DNA from: an uncultured Chloroflexia bacterium
Lineage (GTDB): Bacteria; Chloroflexota; Limnocylindria; Limnocylindrales; CSP1-4
Direction of reading: 5' to 3'
Length of the DNA stretch: 64,000 nucleotides
NCBI GenBank assembly: GCA_963749705.1
Contig: CAVVNQ010000015.1
Coordinates: 160,001-224,000, forward strand
Below the pieces are notes generated by a model. The model was not told where the DNA came from, made no database searches, and worked only from the letters and a program-made list of their open reading frames with translations. Positions 1,577 through 52,897 of this stretch are shown here, piece after piece. The position numbers and the translations under genes are program-made. Numbering within the stretch: position 1 is the first letter of the stretch; every line of letters begins with the position of its first letter.

Positions 1577-3139
1577 ATGACCGCGGCACGGCCGCTCGAC
1601 CTCGACGCCCTCACCCTTGACGGCGTGCGCGCGGGGGCGCTCGACGGTCGTCCGGTGACCGTGCTCGGGCTGGCCCGCAGCGGGATCGCCCTGGCCCGGT
1701 TCCTGGTCGACGCCGGCGCTCGGGTGAGCGTCTACGACGCACGGCCCGCCGCGGACCTGGCCGCCGCGATCGAGCAGCTGGGCGACCGGCCGATCACGCT
1801 CCGGCTTGGGCCGGACGTGGACCCAGCGACCACCTGGGCCGACGCTGCGCTGGTCGCGACATCGCCCTCGATCACGCCCGACTTCCCGACCACGGAGCCG
1901 CGACTGCGGGCCCAGCTGCGCGCGCTGGTGGCCGCTCGCGCCGCCGGCGATCCCAACGCTCCTGCCCTGGTGAGCGAGGCGGACCTGTTCCTCCGGCTGT
2001 GTCCCGCGCCGACCATCGGCATCACGGGGACCAAGGGCAAGACCACCACGGCGTCGCTCGCGCACGCGATCCTCGCGGCCGACCCGCTGCACCCCGCGGT
2101 CCTGGGCGGGAACATCGGCGTCCCGCTCGTCGAACGCCTGCCGGAGCTGACCGCGGACCATCGCGTGGTCGTGGAGCTGTCCGAGCTCCAGCTGCCCACG
2201 CTGTCGCGCGGGACGACGATCGCGGTGTACACCAACGTGACCTCGGACCACCTCGACCGCCACGGCTCGCTGGAGGCGTATCGACGGGTGAAGCGCCGGC
2301 TGGCCGAGCTGGTCGACCCGGACGGTGCGCTCGTCCTGAACCTGGGCGATCCGGTCGTGGGCGGATACGCAGGGCTGGGGACCGCGCCCGCGGTCCTGTA
2401 CCGCGACGACCGGCCCGTGCCCGGTGGCCTGGGCGTCGTGGACGACTGGATCGTGGCGGCGTCGGTCGAGCGGCTGCCGCTCGCGGGAGGCGGCGTGGCC
2501 GCGACCGGACCCGGCGGCGGGATCATGCCGGTGGACGAGCTCGCCATCCCCGGACGCCACAACGTGTCCAACGCCCTGGCCGCGATCGCGGTCGGGCTCC
2601 TGTTCGGGGTCGCGCCCGATGCCGTCCGCCGCGCGGCCGCGGGCTTCACCGGCGTCGAGCACCGGCTCCAGCCGGTCGCGCTCATCGGGGCCGTTCGCTT
2701 CGTCAACAATTCGCAGGGCACCCAGCCCGACGCGGTGATCGCGGCGCTGCGGGCGTTCCCGCCACCGGTCGTCCTGATCGCGGGCGGCCGCGACAAGGGG
2801 GTCGACCTGCACGATCTCGCCCCGGTGGTGGCCGAGCGCGCCGTCGCCGCCGTCCTGATCGGCGAGAGCGGGGATGCGCTCGAGGGGCTGTTCCGCGGCG
2901 CGGGCCTGGCTCGGACCGCACGCGCGGGGTCGATGGACGAGGCGGTCGCCGCGGCCCATGGCTTCGCACTCGAGGCGCTCCGCGGAACGCGCGAGGGGAC
3001 CGTTGCCACGGTCGTCCTCAGCCCCGCGGCGGCATCGTTCGACATGTTCGACGACTACGCGGCCCGTGGCCGCGCGTTCGTCGCGGCCGTCTCGCGCCTC
3101 GCGCACGGCGACCATCCCGACAGCGGGAGATCCGGATGA
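1577..3139 (+). CDS. murD: UDP-MurNAc-L-Ala--D-Glu ligase
   Basis: GLARSG, ITGTKGKTTT, GGNIG, ELS, DHLDRH, EHRL and SPAAASFDMF motifs; ATG 1 nt after the mraY stop. Confidence 0.96.
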   Translation: MTAARPLDLDALTLDGVRAGALDGRPVTVLGLARSGIALARFLVDAGARVSVYDARPAADLAAAIEQLGDRPITLRLGPDVDPATTWADAALVATSPSITPDFPTTEPRLRAQLRALVAARAAGDPNAPALVSEADLFLRLCPAPTIGITGTKGKTTTASLAHAILAADPLHPAVLGGNIGVPLVERLPELTADHRVVVELSELQLPTLSRGTTIAVYTNVTSDHLDRHGSLEAYRRVKRRLAELVDPDGALVLNLGDPVVGGYAGLGTAPAVLYRDDRPVPGGLGVVDDWIVAASVERLPLAGGGVAATGPGGGIMPVDELAIPGRHNVSNALAAIAVGLLFGVAPDAVRRAAAGFTGVEHRLQPVALIGAVRFVNNSQGTQPDAVIAALRAFPPPVVLIAGGRDKGVDLHDLAPVVAERAVAAVLIGESGDALEGLFRGAGLARTARAGSMDEAVAAAHGFALEALRGTREGTVATVVLSPAAASFDMFDDYAARGRAFVAAVSRLAHGDHPDSGRSG

Positions 3140-4410
3140 GCACCACGCTGCCCCTGCCCCTGTCCCGAACCGCGACCCGGGTCCGGTCGCCGGGCGTCCT
3201 CCAGCGCGAGCGGCACGAGCCGGAGTACGGGATCCTGGTCGCCATCGTCGCGCTGGCCGCGATCGGGATCCTGATGGTCTACTCGTCGTCCGCCATGAAG
3301 AACTACCTCGTGCACGACGATACGTTCAGGATCGTGGGACCCCAGATCCAGTGGGCGGCCCTGGGCATGATCGCGATGCTGGTCATGATGCGGGTCGACT
3401 ATCGCTGGCTGCGGGTGGTCTCGATCCCGATGTTCATCGCCGCGATCGTCGCCCTGCTGCTGGTGTTCGTCCCGGCGCTCAATGTCGTGGTCGGCGGGTC
3501 CGCGCGCTGGCTGAGGATCGGGCCCCTGCCCGCGGTCCACCCGGCCGAGTTCATGAAGCTCGCGCTGGTGGTCTACCTGGCCCACCTGTTCGCCACGCGG
3601 GGCGGGGAGGTGCACAGCCTGTGGAAGGGCACGGTGCCGTTCCTGGTGATCACGGGGCCCGTCGTCGCGCTGGTGCTGCTCGAGCCTGACCTCGGCACCT
3701 CCACCGTCCTCGGCCTGACCGCGTTCACGATGTTCTTCCTCGCCGGCGCGAGCTTCGTCCACCTGATCGCGCTGGGCGGGGCCGCCGTTCCCCTGGTCAC
3801 CCTCATGTTCCTCAAGGGCTACCAGATGGAACGCATCAACGCGTGGCTCAACCCGTGGGCCGACGCCGCCGGCAATGGGTTTCACAGCGTCCAGGGCTAC
3901 TTCGCGCTGGCCCTCGGCGGCATCCTGGGCGCCGGGCTGGGCGAGAGCCGGCTGGCGGGCGGCCTGTTCCTCCCCAATGCGTCCAACGACTTCATCTTCG
4001 CGATCATCGGCGAGGAGTTCGGGCTGCTCGGAGCGGGCCTCGTGATCGTGCTGTTCCTCGCCTTCGGCTACCTGGGAATCCGCACGTCGCTCGGGGCGCC
4101 CGACACCTTCGGTGCCCTGCTCGCGGCCGGGATCACCACCTGGATCTGCCTCCAGGCGTTCATCAACATGGCGGTCGTGGTCGGGCTGGTCCCGGTCACC
4201 GGAATCCCGCTGCCGTTCGTGTCCGCGGGAGGCTCATCGCTCATCATCAGCTTTGCGGCGGTGGGCATCCTGCTCTCGGTGTCGCGGGAAACGGTCGAGA
4301 AAGGAACCTGGAACGATGCGCCTGCTGATCGCGGGCGGCGGCACGGGCGGGCACATCTACCCGGCTCTCGCCGTCGTCCGGTCGCTCCGCGCACGACCCG
4401 ACGCGCCTGA
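3136..4410 (+). CDS. ftsW: SEDS peptidoglycan polymerase FtsW
   Basis: GSARW, PAEFMK, EPDLG, DFIFAIIGEEFG and PVTGIPLPFVSAGGSS motifs; ATGA overlap with murD. Confidence 0.95.
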   Translation: MSTTLPLPLSRTATRVRSPGVLQRERHEPEYGILVAIVALAAIGILMVYSSSAMKNYLVHDDTFRIVGPQIQWAALGMIAMLVMMRVDYRWLRVVSIPMFIAAIVALLLVFVPALNVVVGGSARWLRIGPLPAVHPAEFMKLALVVYLAHLFATRGGEVHSLWKGTVPFLVITGPVVALVLLEPDLGTSTVLGLTAFTMFFLAGASFVHLIALGGAAVPLVTLMFLKGYQMERINAWLNPWADAAGNGFHSVQGYFALALGGILGAGLGESRLAGGLFLPNASNDFIFAIIGEEFGLLGAGLVIVLFLAFGYLGIRTSLGAPDTFGALLAAGITTWICLQAFINMAVVVGLVPVTGIPLPFVSAGGSSLIISFAAVGILLSVSRETVEKGTWNDAPADRGRRHGRAHLPGSRRRPVAPRTTRRA

Positions 4411-5464
4411 GGTCGAGTGGCTGGGGGGCCACCGCGGGCTCGAGGCGTCGCTCGTCCCGGCGTCGGGGCTCCCGCTGCGCCGGCTGCTGCTTCGCTCGCT
4501 GCGGTCCGCGGGACGTGACGTCCACCTGGTCCTGGATCCGGTTCGCCTCGGCCTGTCCATTCCGCAGGCGCTCGCGCTGCTCATCGCGCGCCGCCCCGCG
4601 GCCGTGTTCACGACCGGGGGGTACGTGGCGATCCCGACGCTGCTGGCCGCGAGCCTGCTGCGGATCCCCAGCGTCCTGTGGGACGGCAACGTGATCCCGG
4701 GGCGCAGCGTACGGTTCGTGGCGCGGTTCGCGACGGTCGTGACCGTGAGCCACGCGGAGACCGCGGATGGGCTCGCGCACCCCCGGTCGTTCGTGACCGG
4801 GACGCCGATCCGGCCGACGGCCGGTGTGGACATCGACGACGCGCGTGGCCGCTTCGGCGCCCGACCCGGCGAGCGGATCCTGCTCGTGTTCGGCGGCTCG
4901 CAGGCGGTCCGCCGGCTCAACGACGCGGTGCTCGAGGGCCTCCCGCGGCTGGTGACCGCCGTCCGCGTCGTCCACGTGACCGGCGATGCGGGCTACGGTG
5001 CCGCGGTTGCCGCGCGCGACCGGCTGCCCGAGGACGCGCGTGACCGGTACCGCCCCTTCCCGTTCCTGTCCGAGGACATGACCGCGGCGCTCGCGGCCGC
5101 CGACCTCGCGGTCGTTCGAGCGGGTGCCTCGACGCTCGCCGAGGCGGCGGCCTTCGCACTCCCGCTGGTCATCGTCCCGTACCCGCACGCGTCGGGCCAC
5201 CAGCGCCTCAACGCGGAGGCGTATGCGAGGTCCGGGGCGGCGATCCTGGTCGAGGACGAGGCCCTGGATGCGGACCGCCTGGTCGAGGCGGCCGGCCTGC
5301 TTGCCGATCCCGCCCGGCACGCGGCGATGTCGGCCGCGGCCCGTGAGCTCGCTCGACCCGCTGCGGCCGAGGCCGTGGCCGATCTCGTGCTCGCCGTCGC
5401 ATCGGGCGATCCGCTGCCCGGCGGCGCCGAGATCGAGGCGATCGCTCGCGGGGCCCGCCCGTGA
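4316..5464 (+). CDS. murG: lipid II synthase (GlcNAc transferase)
   Basis: GGGTGGHIYPA, GGYVA, GGSQ, RAGASTLAE and HQRLNA motifs. Confidence 0.96.
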   Translation: MRLLIAGGGTGGHIYPALAVVRSLRARPDAPEVEWLGGHRGLEASLVPASGLPLRRLLLRSLRSAGRDVHLVLDPVRLGLSIPQALALLIARRPAAVFTTGGYVAIPTLLAASLLRIPSVLWDGNVIPGRSVRFVARFATVVTVSHAETADGLAHPRSFVTGTPIRPTAGVDIDDARGRFGARPGERILLVFGGSQAVRRLNDAVLEGLPRLVTAVRVVHVTGDAGYGAAVAARDRLPEDARDRYRPFPFLSEDMTAALAAADLAVVRAGASTLAEAAAFALPLVIVPYPHASGHQRLNAEAYARSGAAILVEDEALDADRLVEAAGLLADPARHAAMSAAARELARPAAAEAVADLVLAVASGDPLPGGAEIEAIARGARP

Positions 5465-6474
5465 CCGCGGGGTTCGATGCGTTTGCCCTCGGCACGGAGA
5501 TCCAGCGCCGGATCGGCGTCAAGACGGTGCGCGACGAACCGCTCGCGCGGTTCACCACGATGCGGGTCGGCGGACCGGCCGACCTGTTCGCCGTCGCCCA
5601 CAACCTGTTCGAGCTGCGGGCGCTGGTCAAGTTCTCGCGTGCGCGCGCGATCCCCTTATTCATCCTCGGCCGGGGCAGCAACCTGGTGATCGCCGACGCC
5701 GGGATCCGCGGCCTGGTCGTCCAGGCGCGCGCGGAGGCGGCCCGGGTGGACGGCGACCGCTACCTCGCCGACGCGGGCGTCCCGATGGCCCGGGCCGCCA
5801 CCGAGACCCAGCGAGCGGGGCTCGCCGGGCTCGAGTACGGGCTGGCGATCCCGGGCACGGTCGGGGGCGCGGTGTGGGCCAATGCGGGCGCGCACGAGAG
5901 CGACACGGCCCACGTGCTCGAGTCGGCCACCGTGCTGCTGGCCGACGGCAGCGAGGTCGTCCTGCCCGCAGCCGAGCTCGGATTCTCCTATCGCCACAGC
6001 CGGTTCAAGGCGCAGGCGACGGACACCCCGGGTTCGTCCGGCGCCTCCCCCGTTCCCGACGCGGCCGGGATGACCGGAGGTCCCGCCGAGATCGTGATGT
6101 CGGCAACCTTCCACCTCGAGGCAGCGGACGCCGACGCGATCCGTGCCCGCCTGGACGAGATCCGTCGATGGCGCCGGGATCACCAGCCGCTGGGCATCCC
6201 GTCGGCGGGCAGCGTGTTCCGCAACCCGCCGGGCAATTCCGCGGGACGGCTCGTGGATGCCCTGGGCCTCAAGGGATATCGGGTCGGCGGTGCCTCGGTC
6301 TCCGAGAAGCACGCCAACTTCATCGTCAACGACCGGAAGGGCACGGCCGCCGATGTTCGCCGCGTCGCCGAGCATGTGCGCGCCCAGGTTCGCGCCCGCC
6401 ACGGGCTCGAGCTCGCGTACGAGGTCGAGTTCGTCGGCGACTGGTCGGGCTGGACGGGGGAGGATCGCGGCTGA
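5461..6474 (+). CDS. murB: UDP-N-acetylenolpyruvoylglucosamine reductase
   Basis: RVGGPAD, GRGSNL, IPGTVGGA..NAGA, FSYRHS, SAGSVFRNP and SEKHANF motifs. Confidence 0.96.
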   Translation: MTAGFDAFALGTEIQRRIGVKTVRDEPLARFTTMRVGGPADLFAVAHNLFELRALVKFSRARAIPLFILGRGSNLVIADAGIRGLVVQARAEAARVDGDRYLADAGVPMARAATETQRAGLAGLEYGLAIPGTVGGAVWANAGAHESDTAHVLESATVLLADGSEVVLPAAELGFSYRHSRFKAQATDTPGSSGASPVPDAAGMTGGPAEIVMSATFHLEAADADAIRARLDEIRRWRRDHQPLGIPSAGSVFRNPPGNSAGRLVDALGLKGYRVGGASVSEKHANFIVNDRKGTAADVRRVAEHVRAQVRARHGLELAYEVEFVGDWSGWTGEDRG

Positions 6475-7613
6475 TGAGCGCACCCCCGATCGGCCATGAT
6501 CCCGGCGCGACGGCGATCGCCGTCGTGTTCGGCGGACCGTCCGCGGAGCACGACGTGTCGATCGTGTCGGGGACGGCGATCGGCGATTCGCTGCGCGCCG
6601 CCGGCTACCCCCTCGACCAGTGGCTGATCGCCCTGGACGGGGGCTGGTGGCACCTGCCAGGGGACCATCGCCGCGAGGATCGGCCACCGGCCGCGTACGA
6701 CGACCCGGCCGCCATGGGGGCGACGGGACCCATCGCCGCGGGCGAGGCGCTTGACGGTCTGGCCGCGCGACTGCCGTCGCCGATCGTGTTCCTCGCGCTC
6801 CACGGCCCGTTCGGCGAGGACGGCACCGTGCAGGCCATGTGCGAGGCGGCGGGGCTCGCGTACACGGGCGCCGGCGTCGCGGCGTCCGCGATCGGCATGG
6901 ACAAGGCGCTGTTCAAGCGGCTGGTGCGGGGCATCGGGCTGCCGGTGGTCGATTGGCGCGAGATCCGGTCCACCCGCTGGACGCGCGATCCGGGATCGGT
7001 CCTCGCCGAGCTCGAGGCGTTCGCCGCGGGGACCGGCGACCCGAGGCTGATGATCAAGCCGGCCTCGCTCGGCAGCTCGGTCGGGATGACCCTGGCCCAC
7101 GGACCCGAGGAGCGTGCCGCGGCGCTGGAGCTCGCGTTCCGGTTCGACGAGGTCGCGCTGGCCGAGCGCTACCTGGTGGGCGCGCGCGACCTCGAGGTAT
7201 CGGTCCTGGGCAACGATCCCGACCGCATCGAGATCTACGGCCCGGGCGAGATCATGGCCGGCCACGAGTTCTACGACTACGCCTCGAAGTACACGCCGGG
7301 GCTGTCTCAGACCACGCGCGCCGAGGTCACGCCGATGCAGCGCGCGACGCTGCTCAAGCTGGCCCGGGACACCTATCGGGCCGTCGGCTGCCAGGGCTTT
7401 GCGCGGATCGACTTCCTGCTGGCCGGCGAGGAGCTCGTGGTGTCCGAGATCAACACGATCCCCGGGTTCACGCCGATCAGCCTGTTCCCGACGCTCCCGT
7501 CCGAGGCCGGCTACGACTTCGGCGCCGTGTGCGGCCGGATCGTCGACCTCGCGATCGAGCGCCATGCGGGCCGCGTCCGGCACCGGCTGGAAGCGGTCGA
7601 CCTGCCGCGATGA
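6474..7613 (+). CDS. ddl: D-alanine--D-alanine ligase
   Basis: GGPSAEHDVS, LHGPFGEDG, MDKALFK, GSSVG, FYDYASKY and EINTIPGFT motifs. Confidence 0.96.
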   Translation: MSAPPIGHDPGATAIAVVFGGPSAEHDVSIVSGTAIGDSLRAAGYPLDQWLIALDGGWWHLPGDHRREDRPPAAYDDPAAMGATGPIAAGEALDGLAARLPSPIVFLALHGPFGEDGTVQAMCEAAGLAYTGAGVAASAIGMDKALFKRLVRGIGLPVVDWREIRSTRWTRDPGSVLAELEAFAAGTGDPRLMIKPASLGSSVGMTLAHGPEERAAALELAFRFDEVALAERYLVGARDLEVSVLGNDPDRIEIYGPGEIMAGHEFYDYASKYTPGLSQTTRAEVTPMQRATLLKLARDTYRAVGCQGFARIDFLLAGEELVVSEINTIPGFTPISLFPTLPSEAGYDFGAVCGRIVDLAIERHAGRVRHRLEAVDLPR

Positions 7614-8536: not shown

Positions 8537-8630
8537 GCGGCTGGAACCGCGCCGCACCGGCGACGCGTCCGATCGGGCGGGGGTCTGGTAGCGTTACGGG
8601 AACGTACTTCCGGCCGGAGGCTGCCCGCTC

Positions 8631-20067: not shown

Positions 20068-21456
20068 ATGCCGTACGGCCCGCATGCGGCCGACGATCGA
20101 GCCCGGATGCTCGAGACGATCGGCATCACCTCCGTCGACGAGCTGTTCGACGACATCCCGGAACCGCTTCGTGCGAGCCCACTCCGGCTCGACCCCCCCG
20201 AGCCGGAGCTCGAGCTGAGCGCCCGGCTGGTCGCGCTCGCCGGGCGCAACCGGGTGGACCTGGCGAGCTTCCTGGGTGCCGGCGCCTACCGCCACTGGAC
20301 GCCCGCCGCCGTTGACCAGCTGCTGCTCCGCGGCGAGTGGTACACGGCCTACACGCCGTACCAGCCGGAGGTCAGCCAGGGCACGCTCCAGAGCATCTAC
20401 GAGTACCAGTCGCTCCTGGCCGAGCTCACGGGGCTCGACGTGGTCTCCGCGTCGCACTACGACGGCGGCGCGGCCACCGCGGAGGCGGCCCTGATGGCCT
20501 GCCGCGCCACGCGGCGCGAACGGATCCTGGTCTCCAGGGGCGTCCATCCCCACTACCGCGAGACGCTCGAGACGTACGCGGCGGGAGCCGGGCTCGCTGC
20601 CGAGGAGATCCCGCTGGTGGCGACCGGCCCGCTCGCCGGCACGACCGACCTCGAGGCGCTCGCGCGCCTCCTCGCGGACCCGGGCGGCCCCGTCGCCGGC
20701 GTGGTCGTCGCGCAGCCCAACGTGCTTGGGCTGCTGGAGGCGATGCCCGAGGTCGGGCGGATCGCGCACGAGGCGGGCGCGCTGTTCGTGAGCGTGATCG
20801 AGCCGGTATCCCTGGCCGTGCTCGCGCCACCGGCCGAGTACGGGGCGGACATCGCGGCCGGTGAGGGCCAGCCGCTCGGGATCCCGCTCCAGTACGGCGG
20901 TCCGTACCTGGGGATCGTGGCATGCACGGATGCGCTGGTGCGCCAGATCCCGGGCCGGCTCGTCGGCCAGACCACGGACCTCGCCGGGCGCCGCGCGTTC
21001 GTGATGACGATGCGCGCACGGGAGCAGGACATCCGCCGCGAGAAGGCGGCCAGCAACATCTGCACCAACCAGGCGCTGCTCGCCCTGGCGGCCAGCATCT
21101 ACCTGGCGACGATCGGCCCCCACGGGCTCCGTGACGTTGCCTCGCTGGGCGCGGCTCGTGCCGCGGACCTCGAGGCCGCGCTGGCCGTGGCAGGCGCCCC
21201 GCGGATGCACCCCGGGCCGTACCTCAACGAGTTCGTGGTCAGGGTTCCCGACGCCGCCGGCGTCCACGAGCGGCTGCTCGAGCGGGGGGTGCTCGCCGGC
21301 ATCCCGACGAGCCGGCTGATGCCCGACGAGGGATCGATCGCCGACGGCCTGCTGGTGTGTGCCACCGAGGTGACCACGTCGGCGGAGATCGAGCAATTTG
21401 CCGCGGTGCTGCGCGAGGAGCTCGCCCGCGCCACGACACCGGGAGGCGTGCGGTGA
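20068..21456 (+). CDS. gcvPA: glycine decarboxylase subunit 1
   Basis: FLGAGAY, TAYTPYQPEVSQG and REQDIRREKAASNICTNQ motifs. Confidence 0.96.
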   Translation: MPYGPHAADDRARMLETIGITSVDELFDDIPEPLRASPLRLDPPEPELELSARLVALAGRNRVDLASFLGAGAYRHWTPAAVDQLLLRGEWYTAYTPYQPEVSQGTLQSIYEYQSLLAELTGLDVVSASHYDGGAATAEAALMACRATRRERILVSRGVHPHYRETLETYAAGAGLAAEEIPLVATGPLAGTTDLEALARLLADPGGPVAGVVVAQPNVLGLLEAMPEVGRIAHEAGALFVSVIEPVSLAVLAPPAEYGADIAAGEGQPLGIPLQYGGPYLGIVACTDALVRQIPGRLVGQTTDLAGRRAFVMTMRAREQDIRREKAASNICTNQALLALAASIYLATIGPHGLRDVASLGAARAADLEAALAVAGAPRMHPGPYLNEFVVRVPDAAGVHERLLERGVLAGIPTSRLMPDEGSIADGLLVCATEVTTSAEIEQFAAVLREELARATTPGGVR

Positions 21457-23989: not shown

Positions 23990-24113
23990 AACGGTAGCCG
24001 ACGCCTCAGCGGGAACCGACCCGCCGGCGTTCTTCAAACGCGCGTAATTCTCGCGCGTGTACCATCATCGGCATGCGCCGGATGATTCCGGCAAGACCTT
24101 GGAGGAGGAAACA

Positions 24114-25961
24114 ATGGTCAGATCCGAATCGCGTGGGCTGCGCGCCTTGACGCTCGGCGTCGTGGCGACGGTCGCGCTGGCGGCCTGCGGGGGTTCGACC
24201 CCCACCACGGCTCCGCCGGCGTCGACGGCCCCCGGCTCGTCGGCGACGGCGGAAAGCGCTGCTCCGTCCTCGGAGATCCCGACCGGCGGCACCGTGTACC
24301 TGCTGACGCAGGCCGAGCAGTGGGATCAGGTCGATCCCCAGCGCGCCTACACCGGCGAGGACCTCGCGTTCTTCTCGGCGACGATCTACCGGTCGCTGAC
24401 GGCGTACACCTATTCCGCTGACAACCCCACGGCCTCCGGCCTCCAGCCGGACCTGGCGACCGACACCGGCACGCCGAGCGACGGTGCCAAGACCTGGACG
24501 TTCACGCTCCGTGATGGCGTGAAGTGGCAGGACGGTTCGCCGATCACGTGTGCTGACGTCGCCTACGGCGTGTCGCGCACGTTCGCGAACGACGTCATCA
24601 ACCAGGGCCCGACGTACGCCGTCGCGTACCTCGACATCCCGGCCAACCCGGTCACGGACAAGAGCGACCCCAACAGCGTCTACCTGTCCGCGTACTACGG
24701 TCCCTACAACGGCACCGGCCAGGACCTGTTCGACAAGGCGGTCTCCTGCTCCGCCGACAACAAGACGATCACGTTCCACCTGAAGCAGCCGGTCGCGGAC
24801 TTCAACTACACCGTGACCCTCGGCTTCTCGCCCGTCCCGAAGGCCGCCGACACCGGCGAGTCCTACGGCGTCGCCGCTCCGCCGATGTCCTCGGGCCCGT
24901 ACAAGATCGACAGCTACACCACCGGCAACGGCGGCAAGATGCTGATGTCCAGGAATGAGAACTGGGATGCAGCAAGCGACCCGTACCGGCACCCGTACCC
25001 GGACAACTGGGAAGTCGACTTCGGCATCGACCCGAAGGTCATCGACCAGCGGCTGATCCAGAGCTCGGGCAATGACCAGTACGCCCTCCAGTACGGCGGG
25101 ATGCAGCCCGAGAACCTGGCGACCGTGTTCGCTGATGCCAACACCGTCAACGACCAGTACACCGGCCGCGCCGTCAGCGCGTACGACATCTACTCGCGCT
25201 ACTTCTGGATCAACGTCCAGAAGGTCAAGAACGTCAAGATCCGCCAGGCGATGGCCGTCGCCCTCGACCGCAGCGGGCTCCGCAAGGCGTCCGGCGGCGA
25301 CTTCTACGGCGACTACGCCGACGGCACCATCAAGCCGAACATCGGCGCGGACTACGCCGACACCGGCGTCTGGACCACCATGTTCGGACAGGCGATCCCC
25401 GACACCGGCGACGCCACCCTTGCCAAGCAGCTGATCGCCGACTCCGGCGAGGCTGCACCGACCCTCACCTTCAACTATGCCGACACCCCCACCTACGGCA
25501 AGTGGGCGGCGATCGTGCAGGCGTCGCTCCAGGCGGCCGGCTTCACGGTCAACCTCGCGCCGCTGCCCCCGGGCTCGTACTACAGCACCGTCTTCGATCC
25601 CGAGAAGGCAGGCGACTTCGGTGTCGGTGGCTGGGGCCCTGACTGGCCGAATGCCTCGACCGTCATCCCGCCCCTGTTCACGCAGGAGGGCGGCTGGGAC
25701 CTGTCCCAGGTCGACGACGCAGCGTTCAACACCGAGGTCAAGGCCGCACAGGCCGAGACCGACCGCGCAAAGCAGTCGACGATGTGGCAGGCCCTGGACA
25801 AGGAGACCATCCAGAACATGTGGGTCATCCCCACGTTCTTCGGCCTCAAGCAGGGCATGATGGGCACCAAGCTGGGGACCACGCAGGGACCCAACGGCGG
25901 CCTGTACGACTGGGGCCCCTACAGCTCCAACCCGTACGGCGACATGTACGTCAAGCCGTAG
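24114..25961 (+). CDS. oppA: peptide ABC transporter solute-binding lipoprotein (family 5)
   Basis: GGAGGAGG SD, lipobox LAAC, PDLA..WTFTLRDGVKWQDG, GPYKI and IRQAMA motifs. Confidence 0.9.
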   Translation: MVRSESRGLRALTLGVVATVALAACGGSTPTTAPPASTAPGSSATAESAAPSSEIPTGGTVYLLTQAEQWDQVDPQRAYTGEDLAFFSATIYRSLTAYTYSADNPTASGLQPDLATDTGTPSDGAKTWTFTLRDGVKWQDGSPITCADVAYGVSRTFANDVINQGPTYAVAYLDIPANPVTDKSDPNSVYLSAYYGPYNGTGQDLFDKAVSCSADNKTITFHLKQPVADFNYTVTLGFSPVPKAADTGESYGVAAPPMSSGPYKIDSYTTGNGGKMLMSRNENWDAASDPYRHPYPDNWEVDFGIDPKVIDQRLIQSSGNDQYALQYGGMQPENLATVFADANTVNDQYTGRAVSAYDIYSRYFWINVQKVKNVKIRQAMAVALDRSGLRKASGGDFYGDYADGTIKPNIGADYADTGVWTTMFGQAIPDTGDATLAKQLIADSGEAAPTLTFNYADTPTYGKWAAIVQASLQAAGFTVNLAPLPPGSYYSTVFDPEKAGDFGVGGWGPDWPNASTVIPPLFTQEGGWDLSQVDDAAFNTEVKAAQAETDRAKQSTMWQALDKETIQNMWVIPTFFGLKQGMMGTKLGTTQGPNGGLYDWGPYSSNPYGDMYVKP

Positions 25962-25980
25962 GCATCGAGTCGTAACAATC

Positions 25981-26020
25981 CCCAGGGGGGCGGCAACGCC
26001 GCCCCCCTGGGACACCTTTT
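25981..26020 (+). terminator. GC-rich stem-loop after oppA (partial terminator or mRNA stabiliser)
   Basis: CCCAGGGGGGCGGC-AAC-GCCGCCCCCCTGGG followed by ACACCTTTT. Confidence 0.75.
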
Positions 26021-26041
26021 GCCTTAAGGAGGAACTCGCGG

Positions 26042-27033
26042 GTGACGGCCTACCTGATCCGCCGCGTGCTGGGCATGATCATGCTCCTGTTCCTCCTCAC
26101 GATCACCGTCTTCTTCCTGTTCAACCTCCTGCCCGGTGACCCGGCTCGCCTGACCTGCGGCAAGGCATGCAGCCCGGCGATCATCGAGGCGAACCGCCAC
26201 CGGCTTGGCTACGACGAGCCGATCCTGGTCCAGTACGAGAAGTTCGTGACCGGGATCTTCTTCGGGCGGGTGTACTCCGCCGACTCGCCCCAGCCGATCG
26301 ACTGCACCGCTCCGTGCCTCGGGTATTCGTTCACCCGCCACGAGCTGGTGACATCCCTGATCGCCCGGTCTGCCCCGGTGACGTTCTGGCTCGCGACCGG
26401 CGCCTTCCTGATGTGGATCATCGGGGGCATATCGTTGGGGATCTTCTCGGCGCTCAACCATGGACGGTGGCCGGACCGGCTGGTGATGACGATCTCGCTG
26501 ATCGGCTACTCGCTGCCGTCGTTCTTCATCGGCCTGGTGCTGATCTTCTTCATCATCCTCAAGCTCGGCTGGTTACCATTCCCGTCGTACGTGTCCCCGT
26601 TCGACAACCCGTTCCAGTTCCTGCAGACGATGATCCTGCCCTGGATCGTCCTCGCGACCTTGAACGCGGCGTTCTACATGCGCCTCACGCGCAACCAGGT
26701 GCTCGAGGTGTTCGGCGACGACTTTGTCCGAACCGCCCGCGCGAAGGGCCTCCCGGAACGCACCGTGGTGGTCAAGCACGCACTGCGGGCGGGTCTCACG
26801 CCGATCGTCACGGCTGCGGGCCTTGACCTGGCCTACCTGCTGGGCGGAGCCATCATCTCGGAGAACATCTTCAGCCTGCCGGGACTCGGCTCGCTCGCGG
26901 TCACGTCGGTCCTCACCTCGGACCTGCCGGTGATCGTCGGGATCACGACGCTCACGGCGACGATCATCATCGTCGCGAACCTGGTCGTCGACCTGCTGTA
27001 CGCGGTCGTCGACCCGCGCGTGAGGATCGCCTG

Positions 27034-27034
<1 letters not shown>
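26042..27034 (+). CDS. oppB: peptide ABC transporter permease (OppB/DppB-type)
   Basis: LPGDPA, LGYSF, DFVRTARAKGL and NLVVDLLYAVVDPRVR motifs; AAGGAGG SD. Confidence 0.92.
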
Positions 27035-29126
<2,092 letters not shown>

Positions 29127-40944: not shown

Positions 40945-41848
40945 GGTGTTCGACCGGTCGGGCAAGGTCCGTGACCTGTATCGCGTGGGCGACGATCGCC
41001 TGCTGCTCGTGGCGTCGGATCGCCTGAGCGCGTTCGACGTCATCCTGCCCACGACGATCCCGGACAAGGGCCGCATCCTGACGGGGTTCTCGCGGTTCTG
41101 GTTCGCGAAGACGGCGGACCTGGTGGGCAACCACCTGCTGTCGGCGGATCCCGCCGACCTGCCCGAGAGCCTCACCCATCGCGATCCGGCGCTGATGGCG
41201 GACCTCCGCGGACGGATGATGCTGGGACGGTTGACCGAGGTCCTGCCGGTCGAGTGCGTCGTCCGCGGATACCTGTCCGGGTCGGGCTGGAAGGAGTACC
41301 AGGCCGACGGCAGCGTGTGCGGGATCCGGTTCCCGGCCGGCATGCGCGAGAGCGACCGGCTGCCGGCGCCGATCTTCACCCCGGCATACAAGGCGCCGGC
41401 CGGTCATCACGACGAGAACATCACGTTCCGCCAGGTCGAGGAGCTGGTCGGCGACACCCTGGCCGAGCAGATCCGGGCCGTGTCGCTGGCCCTGTACCGA
41501 CGCGGGGCCGCGGTGTGCGAGGCTGCCGGGATCATCCTCGCCGACACCAAGTTCGAGTTCGGGCTGCTGCCGACCGGCCGGCTGCTCCTGATCGACGAGA
41601 TCCTGACGCCCAATTCGTCGCGCTTCTGGGATGCGGCGACATGGGAGCCTGGTCGCCCGCAGGCGAGCTACGACAAGCAGTACGTGCGCGACTGGCTCGA
41701 GGCGCAGCCGTGGGACAAGACGGCACCCGGGCCGGAGCTGCCGGACGAGGTCGTGGCCGGGACGCGGGCACGGTACGTGGAGGCCTACGAGCGGATCACC
41801 GGAGCGAGCTTCGCCCGCTACCTGCAGGAGGATGTCATCGCCCCATGA
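40931..41848 (+). CDS. purC: SAICAR synthetase
   Basis: GKVRDLY, SDRLSAFD, ECVVRGY, ADTKFEFG and DKQYVRDW motifs. Confidence 0.97.
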   Translation: MSLAEVFDRSGKVRDLYRVGDDRLLLVASDRLSAFDVILPTTIPDKGRILTGFSRFWFAKTADLVGNHLLSADPADLPESLTHRDPALMADLRGRMMLGRLTEVLPVECVVRGYLSGSGWKEYQADGSVCGIRFPAGMRESDRLPAPIFTPAYKAPAGHHDENITFRQVEELVGDTLAEQIRAVSLALYRRGAAVCEAAGIILADTKFEFGLLPTGRLLLIDEILTPNSSRFWDAATWEPGRPQASYDKQYVRDWLEAQPWDKTAPGPELPDEVVAGTRARYVEAYERITGASFARYLQEDVIAP

Positions 41849-47945: not shown

Positions 47946-47960
47946 GCCGATGGAGGAGAC

Positions 47961-50234
47961 ATGAGTCATTCGGGTCGGATCGCGGTCGGCGTGTCGGGAT
48001 CGGGCTCCAACCTGCGGGCGCTCGCGGCGGCGGCCGCGCGCGGCGCGCTGGGTGGCGAGGTCGTGCTCGTGTTCGCGGATCGCCCGTGCGCCGCGCTCGA
48101 CTGGGCGGCGGAGCAGGGGATCGACACCGTGCTCGTGCCCGGCGGCGACGACGCGACCCTGGCCGAGACCCTGGCCGCCGTCGAGCCCGATGCGGTCGTC
48201 CTCGCGGGCTACCTGCGGCTGGTCGGACCCGCGGTGCTGGCGGCATTCGGCGGCCGGATCCTCAACGTCCACCCGTCGCTGCTGCCGGCGTTCCCGGGGC
48301 TCCATGCCGTGCGCGATGCGCTGGCGGCAGGCGTCGCGGTCACCGGCGTCACCGTCCACCTCGTGGACGCGACGCTCGACGGCGGCCCGATCGTCGCCCA
48401 GGAGGCGGTCCCCGTGCTGCCCGAGGACGACGAGGACTCGCTGCTCGGGCGCCTCCACCCGGTCGAGCACCGGCTGCTGCCGGCGGCCGTCGCCGCCCTG
48501 CTCGCCGGGGCGCTGACCCGGCCCGGGGGCGCGCGCCGCGCACGCCTGGACACCGCGATCGCCGACGCCGCCGTCCCGGTACCGCGCCGCGCCCTCCTGT
48601 CGGTGTCCGACAAGCGCGCGCTCGCCGAGCTCGGGCGGGGCCTGGTCACCCGCGGCTTCGAGCTGGTGAGCACCGGCGGCACCGCCCGGGCGCTGCGCGA
48701 GGTCGGCCTTCCGGTCACGGACGTCGCCGCGGTCACCGGGTTCCCGGAGATGCTCGACGGTCGGGTCAAGACGCTCCATCCCCGGGTACATGCCGGGCTG
48801 CTCGCCGATCGCCGCCGGGTGGATCACCGCGAGGCGCTGCTGGCCGCGGGCATCGCGCCGTTCGAGCTCGTGGTCGTCAACCTGTATCCGTTCGCCGAGG
48901 CGGCGCGCAGGCCCGGCCTCTCGTTCGATGACCTGGTCGAGGAGATCGACATCGGCGGCCCGTCGATGGTCCGGGCGGCGGCCAAGAACCACGCCTCGGT
49001 CGCGATCGTCACCTCGCCGGACCGGTATGACGCGATCCTCGCGGCGCTCGACGACCACGGCGAGATCCCGCTCGGGCTCCGCTCGGCGCTGGCCGTCGAG
49101 GCGTTCCGGCACACCGCCGCCTACGACGCGCGGATCGCCGCCGAGCTGCCCGGCCGAATGGTCGAGGCGGGCGTCCCACTCCCGCCCGAGCCGGGTCTGC
49201 CCACCTCGGACGACCCCTACCCGCCGACCCTGACGATCTCGATGACCAAGGTCGAGACGCTGCGCTACGGCGAGAACCCGCACCAGCCCGCCGCGCGCTA
49301 CCGTCGGACCGACCGCGAGCCGCGCCCCGGCGAGGGCCCGTTCGCATCCGGTGAGCCGCCGCTGCAGGGCAAGGCGCTGAGCTACAACAACGTGCTCGAC
49401 GCGTCCGCCGCCGCGGCCGTCGCCCGGCAGCTGCGCGGGCCGGCGATCGTGATCATGAAGCACACCAACCCATGCGGCGCCGCCGAGCGGTCGAACCTGC
49501 TCAATTCCTGGGATGCGGCGCTGGCCGGCGACCCGGTCTCGGCGTTCGGGGGCGTCGTGGCCGTGCGGGGTGCCGTCGATCGCGCGCTCGCGGAGCGACT
49601 CACGTCACTGTTCCTCGAGGTGGTCGTGGCCCCGGCCTACGACGAGGCGGCGCTCGCGGTCCTGGCGACCCGGCCGAACCTGCGCCTGGTCGTCGATCCG
49701 GCGCTCGATCCGGCGGGCGACGCAGGCGGTCAGGGGCGGTCCGCGACGCCGGATCCCGACCACCTGGGCTCGGTGCGCACCACCGGGGGCGCCGTGCTGG
49801 TCACCGCCCCGGACACCCGGCCCGACGACCCGGCGACCTGGAGGTGCACGACATCGCGCCGCCCGACCGACCGCGAGCTGGCCGACCTCGATCTCGCCTG
49901 GCGGCTCGTCCGGGGCGTCGTGTCGAATGCCATCCTGCTGGTCCGTGACGGGATGCTGGTGGGGCTGGGCAGCGGCCAGGTCAGCCGGGTCGACGCGTGC
50001 CGTCAGGCGGTCGACAAGGCCGTCCGGTTCCAGGGCGATGCCGGGGCGCGGGGCGCCGTCGCCGCATCGGACGCGTTCTTCCCGTTCGCCGACGGCCCCG
50101 AGGCGCTGCTCGAGGGCGGGGTGACGGCGATCGTGCAGCCCGGCGGCTCGATGCGCGACGCCGACGTCCTCGCCGCCGTCGAGGCGGCGGGCGCGGCAAT
50201 GCTGGTGACCGGAACCCGCCACTTCCGGCATTGA
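47961..50234 (+). CDS. purH: fused GAR transformylase PurN + AICAR transformylase/IMP cyclohydrolase PurH
   Basis: N-terminal SGSGSNL, NVHPSLLP and LDGGPI (PurN), then ALLSVSDK, GRVKTLHP, IDIGGP, LRYGENPHQ and RHFRH (PurH) in one frame. Confidence 0.96.
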   Translation: MSHSGRIAVGVSGSGSNLRALAAAAARGALGGEVVLVFADRPCAALDWAAEQGIDTVLVPGGDDATLAETLAAVEPDAVVLAGYLRLVGPAVLAAFGGRILNVHPSLLPAFPGLHAVRDALAAGVAVTGVTVHLVDATLDGGPIVAQEAVPVLPEDDEDSLLGRLHPVEHRLLPAAVAALLAGALTRPGGARRARLDTAIADAAVPVPRRALLSVSDKRALAELGRGLVTRGFELVSTGGTARALREVGLPVTDVAAVTGFPEMLDGRVKTLHPRVHAGLLADRRRVDHREALLAAGIAPFELVVVNLYPFAEAARRPGLSFDDLVEEIDIGGPSMVRAAAKNHASVAIVTSPDRYDAILAALDDHGEIPLGLRSALAVEAFRHTAAYDARIAAELPGRMVEAGVPLPPEPGLPTSDDPYPPTLTISMTKVETLRYGENPHQPAARYRRTDREPRPGEGPFASGEPPLQGKALSYNNVLDASAAAAVARQLRGPAIVIMKHTNPCGAAERSNLLNSWDAALAGDPVSAFGGVVAVRGAVDRALAERLTSLFLEVVVAPAYDEAALAVLATRPNLRLVVDPALDPAGDAGGQGRSATPDPDHLGSVRTTGGAVLVTAPDTRPDDPATWRCTTSRRPTDRELADLDLAWRLVRGVVSNAILLVRDGMLVGLGSGQVSRVDACRQAVDKAVRFQGDAGARGAVAASDAFFPFADGPEALLEGGVTAIVQPGGSMRDADVLAAVEAAGAAMLVTGTRHFRH

Positions 50235-50299
50235 CCAGCCTCGACCATCGGCGCCCCGCACCCCGCCGTGCCTGCCGCCGCTGCTACCATCGGCCGGCC

Positions 50300-51946
50300 A
50301 TGTCCAAGCGTCGCCGCTTCTATCTCACGACCGCCATCGCGTACGCGAACAACGCGCCCGGCCTGCACACGGTGTACGAGGTCATCGGGGCGGATGTCAT
50401 CGCGCGCTGGCACCGGATGCTGGGCGACGAGACCCGGTTCCTGACCGGCACCGACGAGCACTCGGTCAACATCGCGCAGTCCGCCGAGGCGGCAGGCCAG
50501 ACGCCGCGCGAGTTCGTGGACGAGAAGGTGGCGCTGTTCCAGGCGGCCGAGGGCGCGCTGCTCATCAGCCCCGACCGCTTCATCCGGACCACCGATCCCG
50601 ACCACTACCGGTCGGCGCAGGAGATGGTCCGCCGAGCGTACGACAACGGCGACATCTACCTCGGGTCGTACGAGGGCTGGTACTGCCCCAACGAGGGGTT
50701 CAAGGCACCGTCGGACCTGCTCGAGACGGCCAACGGGATGCAGTGCCCGAACCATCCCGACGTGACGCTCCAGTGGTTGACTGAGCGCAACTGGTTCTTC
50801 CGGCTGTCCGCCTACCAGGAGCGGCTGCTCGCCTATTACGAGGCCAACCCGGACTTCGTCCAGCCCGACTACCGGCGCAACGAGATGCTGGGGTTCATCC
50901 GCCAGGGCCTCGAGGACTTCTCGATCAGCCGCGCCGGCGCGACCTGGGGCATCCCGTTCCCGATCGCCGAGAACGGCGAGACGGCACAGCGCGAGGACGG
51001 TACCTGGGATCCGGAGGCGGGGACGATCTACGTCTGGGTGGACGCGCTGATCAACTACGTCACGGGCGCCGGCTTCCCCGACGACCTCGACACGTTCCAC
51101 CACTGGTGGCCCGCCGACCTGCACGTGATCGGCAAGGACATCGCGCGCTTCCACACGATCTACTGGCCCGCGATGCTGTGGTCGGCCGGGATCGATGCGC
51201 CGCGCCACGTCTGGGTCCATGGGTTCATGCACGTCCAGGGCGAGCGGATGAGCAAGAGCCGGGGCAACTTCTTCGATCCCAACGCGATGGTGAATGCGTT
51301 CGGCGCCGACGGAACCCGGTTCGTGACCCTGCGCGAGATTCCGTTCGACCGTGACTCGGACGTCTCCTGGGATTCGTTCGTGCGGCGGTACAACGCGGAC
51401 CTCGCCAACGACTTCGGCAACCTCGTCAACCGGACGGTCTCGATGGTCAACCGCTACCTGGGCGGCGCGCGTCCGGCGCCGCGCACGGCCGGCAATTCGC
51501 CGCTGGCCGAGGGTTGGGCCGACACGCTCGTGCTGTACCGGGAACGGCTCGATGGATGCCGGCTCCACGATGCGCTCGCGGAGCTGTGGGAGCTGGTCGG
51601 AGGCGCGAACCGGACCGTCGACGCGGAGCAGCCGTGGACGCTCAACAAGGCCGCGAAGGCCGGCGACGCGGCCGCCGAGGCCAGGTTGCGGGACGTGCTC
51701 GGCGACCTGATCGAGACGTGCCGCCTGGTGGGCCTCGCGGTGGCGCCGTTCATGCCCTCGATCGCGCCCCGGGTGATGGACCAGCTCGGGTTCGAGTACC
51801 CGTACGGCCCCGACGGGAACGGCGGTCCGGCCATCCTGGACCAGCTGGCGTGGGGCGCGCTGCGGGACCAGGCAGGCCACGTGACCGCGACGCCCGAGCC
51901 CCTGTTCCCCCGCACCGAGACCGAGGCGGCGACGGACGACGCGTAG
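50300..51946 (+). CDS. metG: methionyl-tRNA synthetase (short form, no C-terminal Trbp domain)
   Basis: YLTTAIAYAN, GTDEH, FIRTT, IYVWVDALINY, IGKDI, RMSKS and LANDFGNL motifs; precedes tatD. Confidence 0.93.
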   Translation: MSKRRRFYLTTAIAYANNAPGLHTVYEVIGADVIARWHRMLGDETRFLTGTDEHSVNIAQSAEAAGQTPREFVDEKVALFQAAEGALLISPDRFIRTTDPDHYRSAQEMVRRAYDNGDIYLGSYEGWYCPNEGFKAPSDLLETANGMQCPNHPDVTLQWLTERNWFFRLSAYQERLLAYYEANPDFVQPDYRRNEMLGFIRQGLEDFSISRAGATWGIPFPIAENGETAQREDGTWDPEAGTIYVWVDALINYVTGAGFPDDLDTFHHWWPADLHVIGKDIARFHTIYWPAMLWSAGIDAPRHVWVHGFMHVQGERMSKSRGNFFDPNAMVNAFGADGTRFVTLREIPFDRDSDVSWDSFVRRYNADLANDFGNLVNRTVSMVNRYLGGARPAPRTAGNSPLAEGWADTLVLYRERLDGCRLHDALAELWELVGGANRTVDAEQPWTLNKAAKAGDAAAEARLRDVLGDLIETCRLVGLAVAPFMPSIAPRVMDQLGFEYPYGPDGNGGPAILDQLAWGALRDQAGHVTATPEPLFPRTETEAATDDA

Positions 51947-52054
51947 CCCGAGTCGATCCGCGGGCGCCGCCACCGCCCCGCCACCGCCCCGCCGCCGTTC
52001 CGGCACTGCGAGTCCGCCGCCCGGAGTCGCACCCGCCCGCCATACCATCGGGCC

Positions 52055-52897
52055 ATGCGGCTCATCGACGCCCACGGCCACCTCAACGCGGACCGGTTCA
52101 CCGACGATGTCGACCGGGTGCTCGACGACGCCCGGTCGGCCGGCCTGGAGCGGATCCTCGTCCCGGGCTGGAACGTCGCGTCGTCCGAGCGGGCCCTGGA
52201 GCTGGTGACTCGCCGGCCGTGGCTGGACGCGGCCGTCGGCATCCACCCGCACGACGCGGCGAAGGTCGATGCCGCCGGCTGGGCGGACGTCGAGGCCTGG
52301 GCACGGGACGAGCGCGTGGTGGCGATCGGGGAGACCGGGCTGGACTATGACCGGGTGTTCTCGCCGATCGATGTCCAGCTCGAGAACCTGCGTCGCAACC
52401 TGGCCCTCGCGCTCGCCACGGGCAAGCCGGCGATCCTCCATTGCCGGTCGCGGGCCGGCGAGCGCGACGCCCAGGACGCGCTCGTCGCCGAGCTGCGAGC
52501 GGCGGGCTTCGACGGCGAGCCGGCAGCGGCCGCGTTCGGCGCCCGCCCGCCCGCCATCGTCCACAGCTTCTCCGGTCCGGTGGACTATGCGCTGGAGATG
52601 ATCGCGATGGGCCTCGCGGTGAGCTTCTCGGGGCTGGTGTTCCGGCGCGGGGAGGAGCCATCGGCGGAGGTCGTACCGCTGGTACCTCGGGAACGCCTGC
52701 TGGTGGAGACCAATTCGCCGTTCCTGTCGCCGCCGGGCGCGCCGAGGTCGCGGAACGAGCCGCAGCACGTGGCGATCACGGCGCGCTGGGTCGCGAAGCT
52801 CCGTCCCACGACCGAGGACGAGCTGGGCGACGACCTCGTCCGCGCCTACGACCTCGCGTTCGGCGGTCGCCCTGGCCGATCGCGCCGAAGCGCGTAG
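52055..52897 (+). CDS. tatD: TatD family deoxyribonuclease
   Basis: DAHGH, GIHPH, IGETGLDY, HCR, HSF, ET(N)SP and RNEP motifs. Confidence 0.94.
   Translation: MRLIDAHGHLNADRFTDDVDRVLDDARSAGLERILVPGWNVASSERALELVTRRPWLDAAVGIHPHDAAKVDAAGWADVEAWARDERVVAIGETGLDYDRVFSPIDVQLENLRRNLALALATGKPAILHCRSRAGERDAQDALVAELRAAGFDGEPAAAAFGARPPAIVHSFSGPVDYALEMIAMGLAVSFSGLVFRRGEEPSAEVVPLVPRERLLVETNSPFLSPPGAPRSRNEPQHVAITARWVAKLRPTTEDELGDDLVRAYDLAFGGRPGRSRRSA

Follow-up and report, generated by a model that had tools for sequence, protein, structure and literature searches.

The window analysed here, a 64,000-nt stretch of the source assembly (G000), contains six CAATTC hexamers on its + strand, each of which lies in frame as AAT-TCN within its ORF, as an earlier note on this DNA had described. 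The ORFs, named via NCBIfam, encode MurD, MurB, PurC, PurN and PurH (together in a single 757-aa ORF), MetG, and a TatD-family protein (Table 1). The nine AATT copies that the note had counted by eye in the window are all present where it placed them, compared to 19.1 ± 4.3 expected from dinucleotide shuffles, and AAT is indeed a rare codon, accounting for 8.4% of Asn codons in a set of 2132 ORFs. Including a single − strand copy at 58617, the window holds seven CAATTC hexamers, which is the chance level (shuffle mean 5.9; at least seven in 30 of 100 shuffles). The window is also ordinary for this genome, where + strand CAATTC averages 3.4 per 64 kb and individual windows reach 7. Six + strand copies of the motif are changed to CAATTC and six are unchanged CGATTC; the latter comprise the two that had been pointed out before, at 6584 and 8744, and four further sites.

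Table 1 In-frame CAATTC hexamers on the + strand of the window.
Feature	Positions	Strand	Codon and context
murD CAATTC	2707..2712	+	AAT (Asn) replaces conserved Asp, VN-D-SQGTQ
murB CAATTC	6234..6239	+	AAT (Asn) within NPPG-D-S
purC CAATTC	41611..41616	+	AAT (Asn) within TP-D-SSR
purH part of purN-purH ORF, CAATTC	49502..49507	+	AAT (Asn), variable D/E position
metG CAATTC	51493..51498	+	AAT (Asn), variable D/E position
tatD-family gene CAATTC	52711..52716	+	AAT (Asn) within VET-D-SP

In the two closest relatives, G031 and G032, G is present at all six window sites, and four of the six read exactly GATTC. The murD and tatD sites are CGATTC in both genomes, while the murB site is CGATTC in G031 and TGATTC in G032. 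At the purC site G032 carries CCCGATTCG, identical to the window letters with G replacing A. The purH site reads CGATGC in both relatives and CGACTC in G009, giving all three a codon that starts with G (Asp), and the metG site is CGACTC (Asp) in G031 and G032 alike. The Asp that a single A>G change restores at all six sites matches the residue in the closest relatives. At position 41612, G also appears in 29/29 aligned contigs from four soil runs, these contigs deriving from relatives and not from the source; the best-matching public run shared 0.10 of the sequence words.

Conservation at the protein level differs among the sites. Asp occupies the MurD position in 29/29 relative loci, the TatD position in all 26 relative loci with a match (two had none), and the PurC position in 15 of the 17 relative genomes, with AAT-TC again in the other two; in a wider set drawn from a genome contigs collection, PurC retains Asp in 79 of 80 loci. 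Solved structures display VETDSP or VETDAP (YcfH/TatD chains), TPDSSR (PurC), and N/DDSK (MurD) at the aligned positions. The strong conservation previously asserted for these three residues is thus borne out. The Asp of MurB NPPGDS, described as common, is present in 17/17 loci of the genus and variable across the sister genus. Within the genus, the PurH position is variable (4 D, 10 E, 1 A, 1 G), as is that of MetG (6 D, 7 E, 4 other).

Across the 22 contigs of the assembly, whose orientation is arbitrary, CAATTC has 190 copies on the contig + strand against 83 on the − (binomial p 8e-11). Genes on the + strand contain 66 sense and 9 antisense copies, whereas those on the − strand contain 17 sense and 48 antisense copies (Fisher p 4e-14); the excess tracks the contig strand rather than the gene strand. 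It is seen in 18 of 21 informative contigs regardless of gene-strand bias or the sign of the GC skew. Of the 1593 six-mers screened for a contig-strand effect, CAATTC scores highest (z 6.6), and the next non-overlapping six-mer has a z of 3.7. The counterpart CGATTC is depleted on the + strand (422 vs 515) by about as much as CAATTC is in excess, such that the sum of the two is nearly balanced, at 612 on + and 598 on −. Set against the 422 surviving + strand copies of CGATTC, an excess of ~107 CAATTC corresponds to roughly a fifth of copies changed.

The affected motif is narrow. Where no C precedes it, AATTC is balanced between the strands (96 vs 95), and CAATTT displays no strand excess (12 vs 18). 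The CAA-TTT codon pair of gcvPA at 21394, earlier proposed as a seventh site that would read Arg, is CAA-TTT and CAG-TTT in the closest relatives, and because both encode Gln there we regard it as a real Gln codon. Counts for the other GANTC-derived forms, ordered as + genes sense/antisense and then − genes antisense/sense, reveal no contig-strand effect for CAACTC (147/21/16/102) or CAAGTC (149/30/25/104), and one that is weak at most for CAAATC (17/11/18/7). The four GANTC forms do not behave alike, as a CcrM-type methylation footprint would have them do. The effect does not extend to GANTC in general; it is present only in the GATTC form with a 5′ C.

In − genes, 36 of the 48 antisense CAATTC copies read GAA-TTG in frame. 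The sense-strand change at these sites is C>T, converting TCG to TTG (Ser>Leu) at conserved residues. The release factor (GGQ..TE-S) has Ser in 9/9 relatives and Leu in G000; a YyaL-like protein has Ser in seven of eight relatives, Thr in the eighth, and Leu in G000; and RadA (GEE-S) has Ser in 3/3 relatives and Leu in G000.

The forward excess also depends on the type of assembly. Forward CAATTC outnumbers reverse CAATTC in each of the 11 genus assemblies that have at most 30 contigs (1370:866, p 1e-26), and these 11 are species representatives in the genome collection searched. No forward excess is found in five genus assemblies with at least 150 contigs (184:196), and the three with 80–90 contigs give 196:200. 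Three MAGs with NODE_/scaffold names give 89:90 at 16–21 sites per Mb, compared to 76 per Mb in G000; overall, CAATTC density is 3–5 times lower in related fragmented or NODE_/scaffold-named assemblies. Two MAGs with contig_N names show forward:reverse ratios of 124:70 and 109:58. According to the part of the source publication covered here, these contig_N relatives are Nanopore-only assemblies produced with Guppy sup, Flye, and one Medaka round, and short-read polishing is absent from the steps it describes (PMC12313526). The strength of the excess varies among contiguous assemblies, from 223:101 to 113:93. Two exceptions were encountered: G013 has a high CAATTC density that is nonetheless symmetric (117:120) and carries Asn at the same PurC site, and L306 has Asn at the PurC site on its contig’s reverse strand.

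Taken together, these results indicate that the assembled consensus is wrong at the six AAT-TCN codons, which do not represent the organism’s sequence, a reading to which we assign a probability of about 0.93. The error is specific to a single hexamer, to the forward strand of the file, and to contiguous, long-read-like assemblies of the genus. In this scheme, about a fifth of true + strand CGATTC copies would be written CAATTC, with the G before the A becoming A; in-frame copies in + genes would turn GAT (Asp) into AAT (Asn), and − genes would have GAA-TCG (Glu-Ser) rendered as GAA-TTG (Glu-Leu). Asp is most likely the true residue of the proteins at each of the six sites, with less certainty for MetG. 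Judged by the aligned relatives, the true sequence at the murD, murB, purC, and tatD sites is likely CGATTC. Of the 26 + strand CAATTC sites that align to G009, 23 have G opposite the A, against an A:G background of 7.1%. CGACTC makes up 8 of the 15 CGAYTC counterparts in G009, which by our estimate is not a clear excess over the expected GACTC share of 0.38 (36 vs 59). Because CGACTC occurs in these eight counterparts and in both closest relatives at metG, some sites may be two-base errors, or the single-base model may be incomplete. Confidence is lowest at the metG site, where G000 either truly has GATTC or is wrong at two bases.

Three other accounts take the A as real. The earlier note had raised the prospect that a sequence-specific A-to-I enzyme turns CAAUUC into CIAUUC in the mRNA and so restores Asp. 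Such a change would yield GAT at all six window sites, three of which are invariant Asp positions. Bacterial A-to-I mRNA recoding by TadA targets tRNA-Arg-like UACG loops in an anticodon-like hairpin. The present case resembles it in that several genes would regain a conserved residue through one A>G-like change at a constant place in the motif. It differs in its motif, CAAUUC, in an excess that also falls outside the sense strand, and in antisense sites that would need U>C instead of A>I. The excess follows the FASTA + strand and not the sense strand, with 48 antisense against 17 sense copies in − genes. The antisense sites are Ser>Leu changes, and therefore no A-to-I event could repair them in the release factor, RadA, or the YyaL-like protein. 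Fragmented and short-read-named genus assemblies lack the forward excess, and the DNA of the closest relatives already has G at 6/6 sites. There is no case for mRNA editing at CAATTC sites, and of all the accounts considered this one is the most improbable, at the very edge of credibility. Real lineage mutations, for instance where a methylated motif is a hotspot for deamination or mismatch, would make the proteins truly Asn or Leu; G>A does fit deamination of the opposite-strand cytosine at a CpG-containing, motif-specific site. A mutational process is blind to arbitrary contig orientation, yet 18 of 21 contigs have more + than − copies. It would also have inactivated conserved residues of several essential enzymes simultaneously, and it would have to act across different species in 11/11 contiguous assemblies while sparing the five fragmented ones. 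The methyl-C deamination hotspot suggested in the note cannot track the orientation of 22 contigs or assembly contiguity, and we consider real mutation very improbable. Slightly less probable still is a consensus that mixes co-occurring strains, with A as a real minor allele. G000 is a metagenome bin with 1.3% contamination, and near-identical and 85–95% similar contigs coexist in the soil runs; strain alleles, however, would not be limited to one hexamer and one file strand, and all 29 aligned soil contigs have G at 41612. The note had proposed that strand-symmetric enrichment would point to a DNA-level cause. The asymmetry found is relative to the file rather than to biology, and it is therefore stronger evidence for an artefact.

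What triggers the consensus error is less firmly established than the error itself. The note’s top-ranked reading, a systematic motif-specific sequencing change, stands, although plain GANTC is not the motif. Contiguity and the sequencing of the relatives suggest a long-read technology for G000. Given an artefact, we somewhat favor a base modification within GATTC or adjacent to it, which would alter the nanopore signal and lead reads of one strand to report A in place of G. The error is confined to a motif, confuses purine with purine, and covers only part of the motif copies, all three of which are criteria for long-read modification errors. An error in reads of one DNA strand is expected to strike both file strands equally. 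The forward-only excess therefore requires a putative asymmetric consensus step: a consensus or polishing step that treats the strands unequally would retain the wrong base only on the draft’s forward strand. A basecaller or polisher k-mer weakness in very GC-rich DNA, with no modification involved, would account for a single affected hexamer with the other GANTC forms spared, and the forward-only pattern suggests software over chemistry. Against it, contiguous assemblies within one genus vary widely in the strength of the effect (223:101 to 113:93), comparable errors disappear after amplification in the portions of two published studies covered here (PMC11610603, PMC11610573), and a methyltransferase is conserved in 18/18 genus members. 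On balance such a weakness appears unlikely, though far less so than any account in which the A is real.

The covered sections of four reports describe modification-induced R10.4.1 errors that are strand-specific, include G-to-A, affect only some motif copies, and mostly confuse purine with purine (PMC11610603, PMC11610573, PMC12392509, PMC10687267); in two of them, motif-bound purine confusions that vanish after amplification are taken as modification-dependent (PMC11610603, PMC11610573). As far as those sections go, the errors described here are similar in their short motif, in G being called A, in the fraction of copies affected, in the wrong base lying beside and not on the presumed modified base, in their occurrence in long-read-only assemblies, and in being correctable by comparison with close relatives (Liu et al. 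2024 PMC11610603; Lohde et al. 2024 PMC11610573; Chiou et al. 2023 PMC10687267). They differ in that strand-specificity is known here from finished contigs alone, and neither a forward-only consensus excess nor the CGATTC motif was found in the covered parts of PMC11610603, PMC11610573, and PMC10687267. GANTC (CcrM-type) adenine methylation causes Nanopore assembly errors in Brucella, according to the part of that report covered (PMC12392509). GANTC has four forms, GATTC among them, and a CcrM-matching methyltransferase is conserved in the genus studied here. Unlike the Brucella case as described there, GACTC, GAGTC, and GAATC show no clear effect, a 5′ C is needed, and the host is a Chloroflexota MAG and not an alphaproteobacterium.

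Three PF01555 loci are present in G000. One, a beta-class N6/N4 DNA methyltransferase gene (G000:C2:86874-87746), occurs in 18/18 genus genomes and 0/12 sister-genus genomes. Among solved structures it is best matched by an unnamed methyltransferase, RsrI, and CcrM (E 1.8e-21 for CcrM), the first two matching better than CcrM. We tentatively propose, at a little short of even odds, that CAATTC is the footprint of a real, uncharacterised modification, in which this enzyme, conserved throughout an uncultured Chloroflexota genus from soil, would act as an amino-methyltransferase on a CGATTC-containing motif. The mark would possibly sit on one strand only, and current basecalling models would then misread it in every long-read MAG of the genus.

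The assembly probably carries ~100 false substitutions of one kind, several of them at conserved positions in essential proteins (MurD, PurC, TatD, release factor, and RadA). Such genomes would mislead anyone using them to call pseudo-enzymes, positive selection, recoding, or strain SNPs, and a forward-versus-reverse k-mer count offers a cheap, read-free screen for such errors. The enzymes most likely keep their usual Asp and Ser, so that nothing biologically unusual remains at these sites. If the modification reading is true, the biology would lie in the methylation system and not in the Asn codons.

AATT is rare in the window, with nine copies against 19.1 ± 4.3 in shuffles, and CAATTC occurs six times on the forward strand and once on the reverse, a total that is not above chance (5.9 expected from shuffles) and is ordinary for the source genome (3.6 Mb, 22 contigs, 71.5% G+C, 88% complete) in a genome-wide comparison. 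As the earlier note had seen by eye, each of the six forward copies is read in frame as AAT-TCN, within ORFs named by NCBIfam as MurD, MurB, PurC, PurN and PurH (a single ORF), MetG and a TatD-family nuclease. The unusual aspect is the residues replaced by AAT codons rather than the number of CAATTC sites. Codon usage alone did not reveal the anomaly, since AAT makes up 13.5% of Asn-TCN pairs in this genome and a similar share, 13.8–15.5%, before CC, CG or GC. The purN-purH ORF is one open frame of 757 residues with no intervening stop (PurN at residues 6–183, PurH at 209–757); genus relatives have open frames of 754–1031 residues across the same match, and the fusion therefore looks real and conserved.

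Comparison of the six genes across 18 same-genus and 12 sister-genus genomes reveals what relatives read at these sites. A conserved Asp, as previously proposed, is found at the MurD site in 29 of 29 relative loci, at the TatD site in all 26 loci with a hit and at the MurB site in 17 of 17 genus loci. For PurC, Asp is found in 15 of 17 genomes, and the remaining two carry AAT-TC themselves; a wider scan gives Asp in 79 of 80 PurC loci and AAT-TC in one. The same Asp is seen in solved structures of YcfH/TatD, PurC and MurD, and the PurH and MetG sites are D/E-variable among relatives. The two closest relatives, G031 and G032 (90–93% identical in DNA), carry G at each of the six sites, reading GATTC at murD, murB, purC and tatD, GATGC at purH and GACTC at metG; a single G-to-A change in (C)GATTC thus accounts exactly for four sites and is consistent with the remaining two. 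Public sequencing runs were also matched by words, of which the best run shared 0.10 and none half or more, and the listing had no RNA run sharing them; 29 of 29 contigs from such runs have G at 41612, though these contigs are mostly those of relatives and not informative on the source. The gcvPA codon CAA-TTT, once suspected as a seventh site, has to be dropped: it is CAA-TTT in G032 and CAG-TTT in G031 and is hence a genuine Gln codon. TAATTC at 24046 is likewise conserved in G031. The sister-genus genomes are small (1.0–1.4 Mb, 87–93% complete); a purC match was absent from 12 of 12 with the query used, and only a distant PurH-like match was found, in 10 of 12, suggesting that purine synthesis is reduced in the sister genus.

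Plain k-mer strand asymmetry in the source genome is dominated by a 55:45 excess of forward-strand genes, and it was replaced by a test of gene strand against motif strand, using a conservative, GC3-based set of 2132 ORFs that accounts for 75% of the genome. Genome-wide, CAATTC occurs 190 times on the forward strand of the contigs and 83 times on the reverse (p = 8e-11), and forward copies outnumber reverse copies in 18 of 21 informative contigs, including C6, C8 and C11, whose genes lie mostly on the reverse strand, and under either sign of GC skew. Within forward-strand genes 66 copies are sense and 9 antisense; within reverse-strand genes 17 are sense and 48 antisense (Fisher p = 4e-14 for the gene-strand split). 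The excess therefore tracks the arbitrary orientation in which each contig was written, to which no process in the cell has access. When 1593 six-mers are scored for this dependence on contig strand, CAATTC stands out most (z = 6.6), and the next non-overlapping six-mer reaches z = 3.7. CGATTC is correspondingly short on the forward strand, with 422 copies against 515 (a deficit of 93), and the CAATTC and CGATTC sums balance at 612 on the forward and 598 on the reverse strand. AATTC without a preceding C is symmetric (96 versus 95), and no flank preference was seen outside the hexamer at the CAATTC sites of this genome. Plain GANTC, which the earlier note had named as an example, is not the affected motif. 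CGACTC is symmetric genome-wide (1011 versus 1021). About 107 of roughly 530 forward-strand CGATTC sites, a fifth, are written as CAATTC; in the window 6 of 12 forward-strand sites are changed. Weaker contig-strand effects at ACCAA, CCAAG, ACCAAG, CGCCAA and CACCAA (z = 3.4–4.4) may represent a second, fainter class of G-to-A error (e.g. CCGAG to CCAAG) or noise.

Coordinates of the sites and features discussed (window positions unless a contig is named)
Feature	Location	Strand	Remarks
CAATTC in murD	2707	+	
CAATTC in murB	6234	+	
CAATTC in purC	41611	+	
CAATTC in purN-purH	49502	+	
CAATTC in metG	51493	+	
CAATTC in tatD	52711	+	
CAATTC, sole reverse copy in the window	58617–58622	-	stretch of lower G+C (0.683 over 56–60 kb), unaligned to G009; may be real or an error
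purN-purH open frame	47961–50231	+	
Region of lower G+C	24001–28000		G+C falls to 0.667, GC skew -0.07; elsewhere G+C 0.71–0.74
ORFs in that region	24057–27034		low first-position G+C, 0.58–0.59
21-bp tandem repeat	53847–53962		about 4–5 copies; four GAATCG (unchanged motif, reverse strand) at 53873, 53894, 53915 and 53957
Weaker 21-bp array	53644–53683		
Beta-class N6/N4 DNA methyltransferase	C2:86874–87746		best solved matches: an unnamed methyltransferase, RsrI and CcrM
PF01555 locus	C21:36855–37730		later part of the profile matched before the earlier part
PF01555 locus	C6:103557–104540		later part of the profile matched before the earlier part

Alignment to another genus relative, G009 (412,088 positions at 86% identity), points the same way: G009 has G opposite the A at 23 of 26 aligned forward-strand CAATTC sites, against an A:G mismatch background of 7.1%. 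Its letters at these 26 sites are CGATTC in 7, CGACTC in 8 and CAATTC in 2. In the reverse direction, none of 47 aligned AATTC sites of G009 faces GACTC in the source genome. Because G009 has GACTC at five of the six window sites, a two-base change of GACTC to AATTC, around the A of GANTC, was initially favored. As the main rule it is contradicted by the symmetric CGACTC counts, the forward shortage of CGATTC, the balanced sums and the GATTC found at four of six sites in G031 and G032. A smaller share of sites, metG among them, may still be two-base miscalls: the relative has GACTC there, as do 8 of 15 G009 counterparts.

The strand excess also varies with the type of assembly. Forward copies of CAATTC exceed reverse copies in 11 of 11 genus assemblies with at most 30 contigs (1370:866 overall); the ratio is 196:200 in three assemblies with 80–90 contigs and 184:196 in five with at least 150. 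NODE_ names are given by a short-read assembler and contig_N names by a long-read assembler. Two contig_N-named MAGs of relatives show ratios of 124:70 and 109:58, and three NODE_- or scaffold-named MAGs show 32:40, 30:32 and 27:18, with 16–21 sites per Mb versus 76 per Mb in the source genome; these named MAGs may overlap the genus assemblies (the counts for one genome are the same in each set), and the two sets were not summed. The contig_N-named relatives were sequenced by Nanopore only, with Guppy super-accurate basecalling, Flye and one Medaka round, and short-read polishing is absent from the steps described in the part of that account available to us (PMC12313526). There are exceptions: G013 is symmetric yet dense in CAATTC and has Asn in PurC, and locus L306 carries its PurC Asn on the reverse strand of the contig. 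Some reverse-strand copies may be errors too, since reverse-strand density is ~19–23 per Mb in contiguous assemblies versus ~7–11 per Mb per strand in NODE_/scaffold MAGs, which are of different species. The G001 assembly (2 contigs, 73% complete) looks like one with many indel errors, its murD and metG each lying in four frame pieces (around loci L030 and L137).

We conclude that the six AAT-TCN codons are an assembly-consensus artefact, with a probability of roughly 0.93. The earlier note had also raised A-to-I editing of mRNA at CAAUU; it is now extremely improbable. The excess follows contig orientation, and in reverse-strand genes 36 of 48 forward-strand copies are in frame as GAA-TTG (Glu-Leu), a change that amounts to C-to-U on the mRNA and lies beyond A-to-I repair. 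At the three such sites compared with relatives, the source genome has Leu where relatives have Ser: in 9 of 9 for the release factor motif GGQHV.KTE-S, in 7 of 8 (Thr in one) for the YyaL-like CHWCHVMERE-S and in 3 of 3 for RadA GEE-S. Real mutations of the lineage, under which the departure from the relatives' Asp would be genuine, are very unlikely, for contig orientation is invisible to any cell.

Granting the consensus artefact, a modified base is the probable trigger, if by a modest margin of confidence. R10.4.1 reads carry modification-induced errors on a single strand, including G-to-A, that are gone after whole-genome amplification (PMC11610603); most ambiguous positions are A/G or C/T and fall within short motifs, and only part become assembly errors (PMC11610573). 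Untrained modifications can yield thousands of mismatches, correctable against relatives (PMC10687267), and two errors in Brucella were linked to GANTC (PMC12392509). The present case would fit among these nanopore errors. Neither a forward-only consensus excess nor the motif CGATTC was found in the parts of the published accounts covered by our non-exhaustive search. A one-strand read error should affect both strands of the file to the same degree, which requires an asymmetry at some step of the consensus; this could be a tie-break that follows base order (A ahead of G, C ahead of T) or a polisher whose output depends on which of the two complementary strands it is given, both purely conjectural.

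The source genome holds three PF01555 methyltransferase loci. The beta-class enzyme on C2 occurs at 75–86% identity in every one of the 18 genus genomes, so it cannot discriminate among them by strength of asymmetry, and no copy was found in any of the 12 genomes of the sister genus. The Asn codons do not reflect the organism itself; the CAATTC pattern is of use as a warning on data quality and may point to a conserved methylation system.
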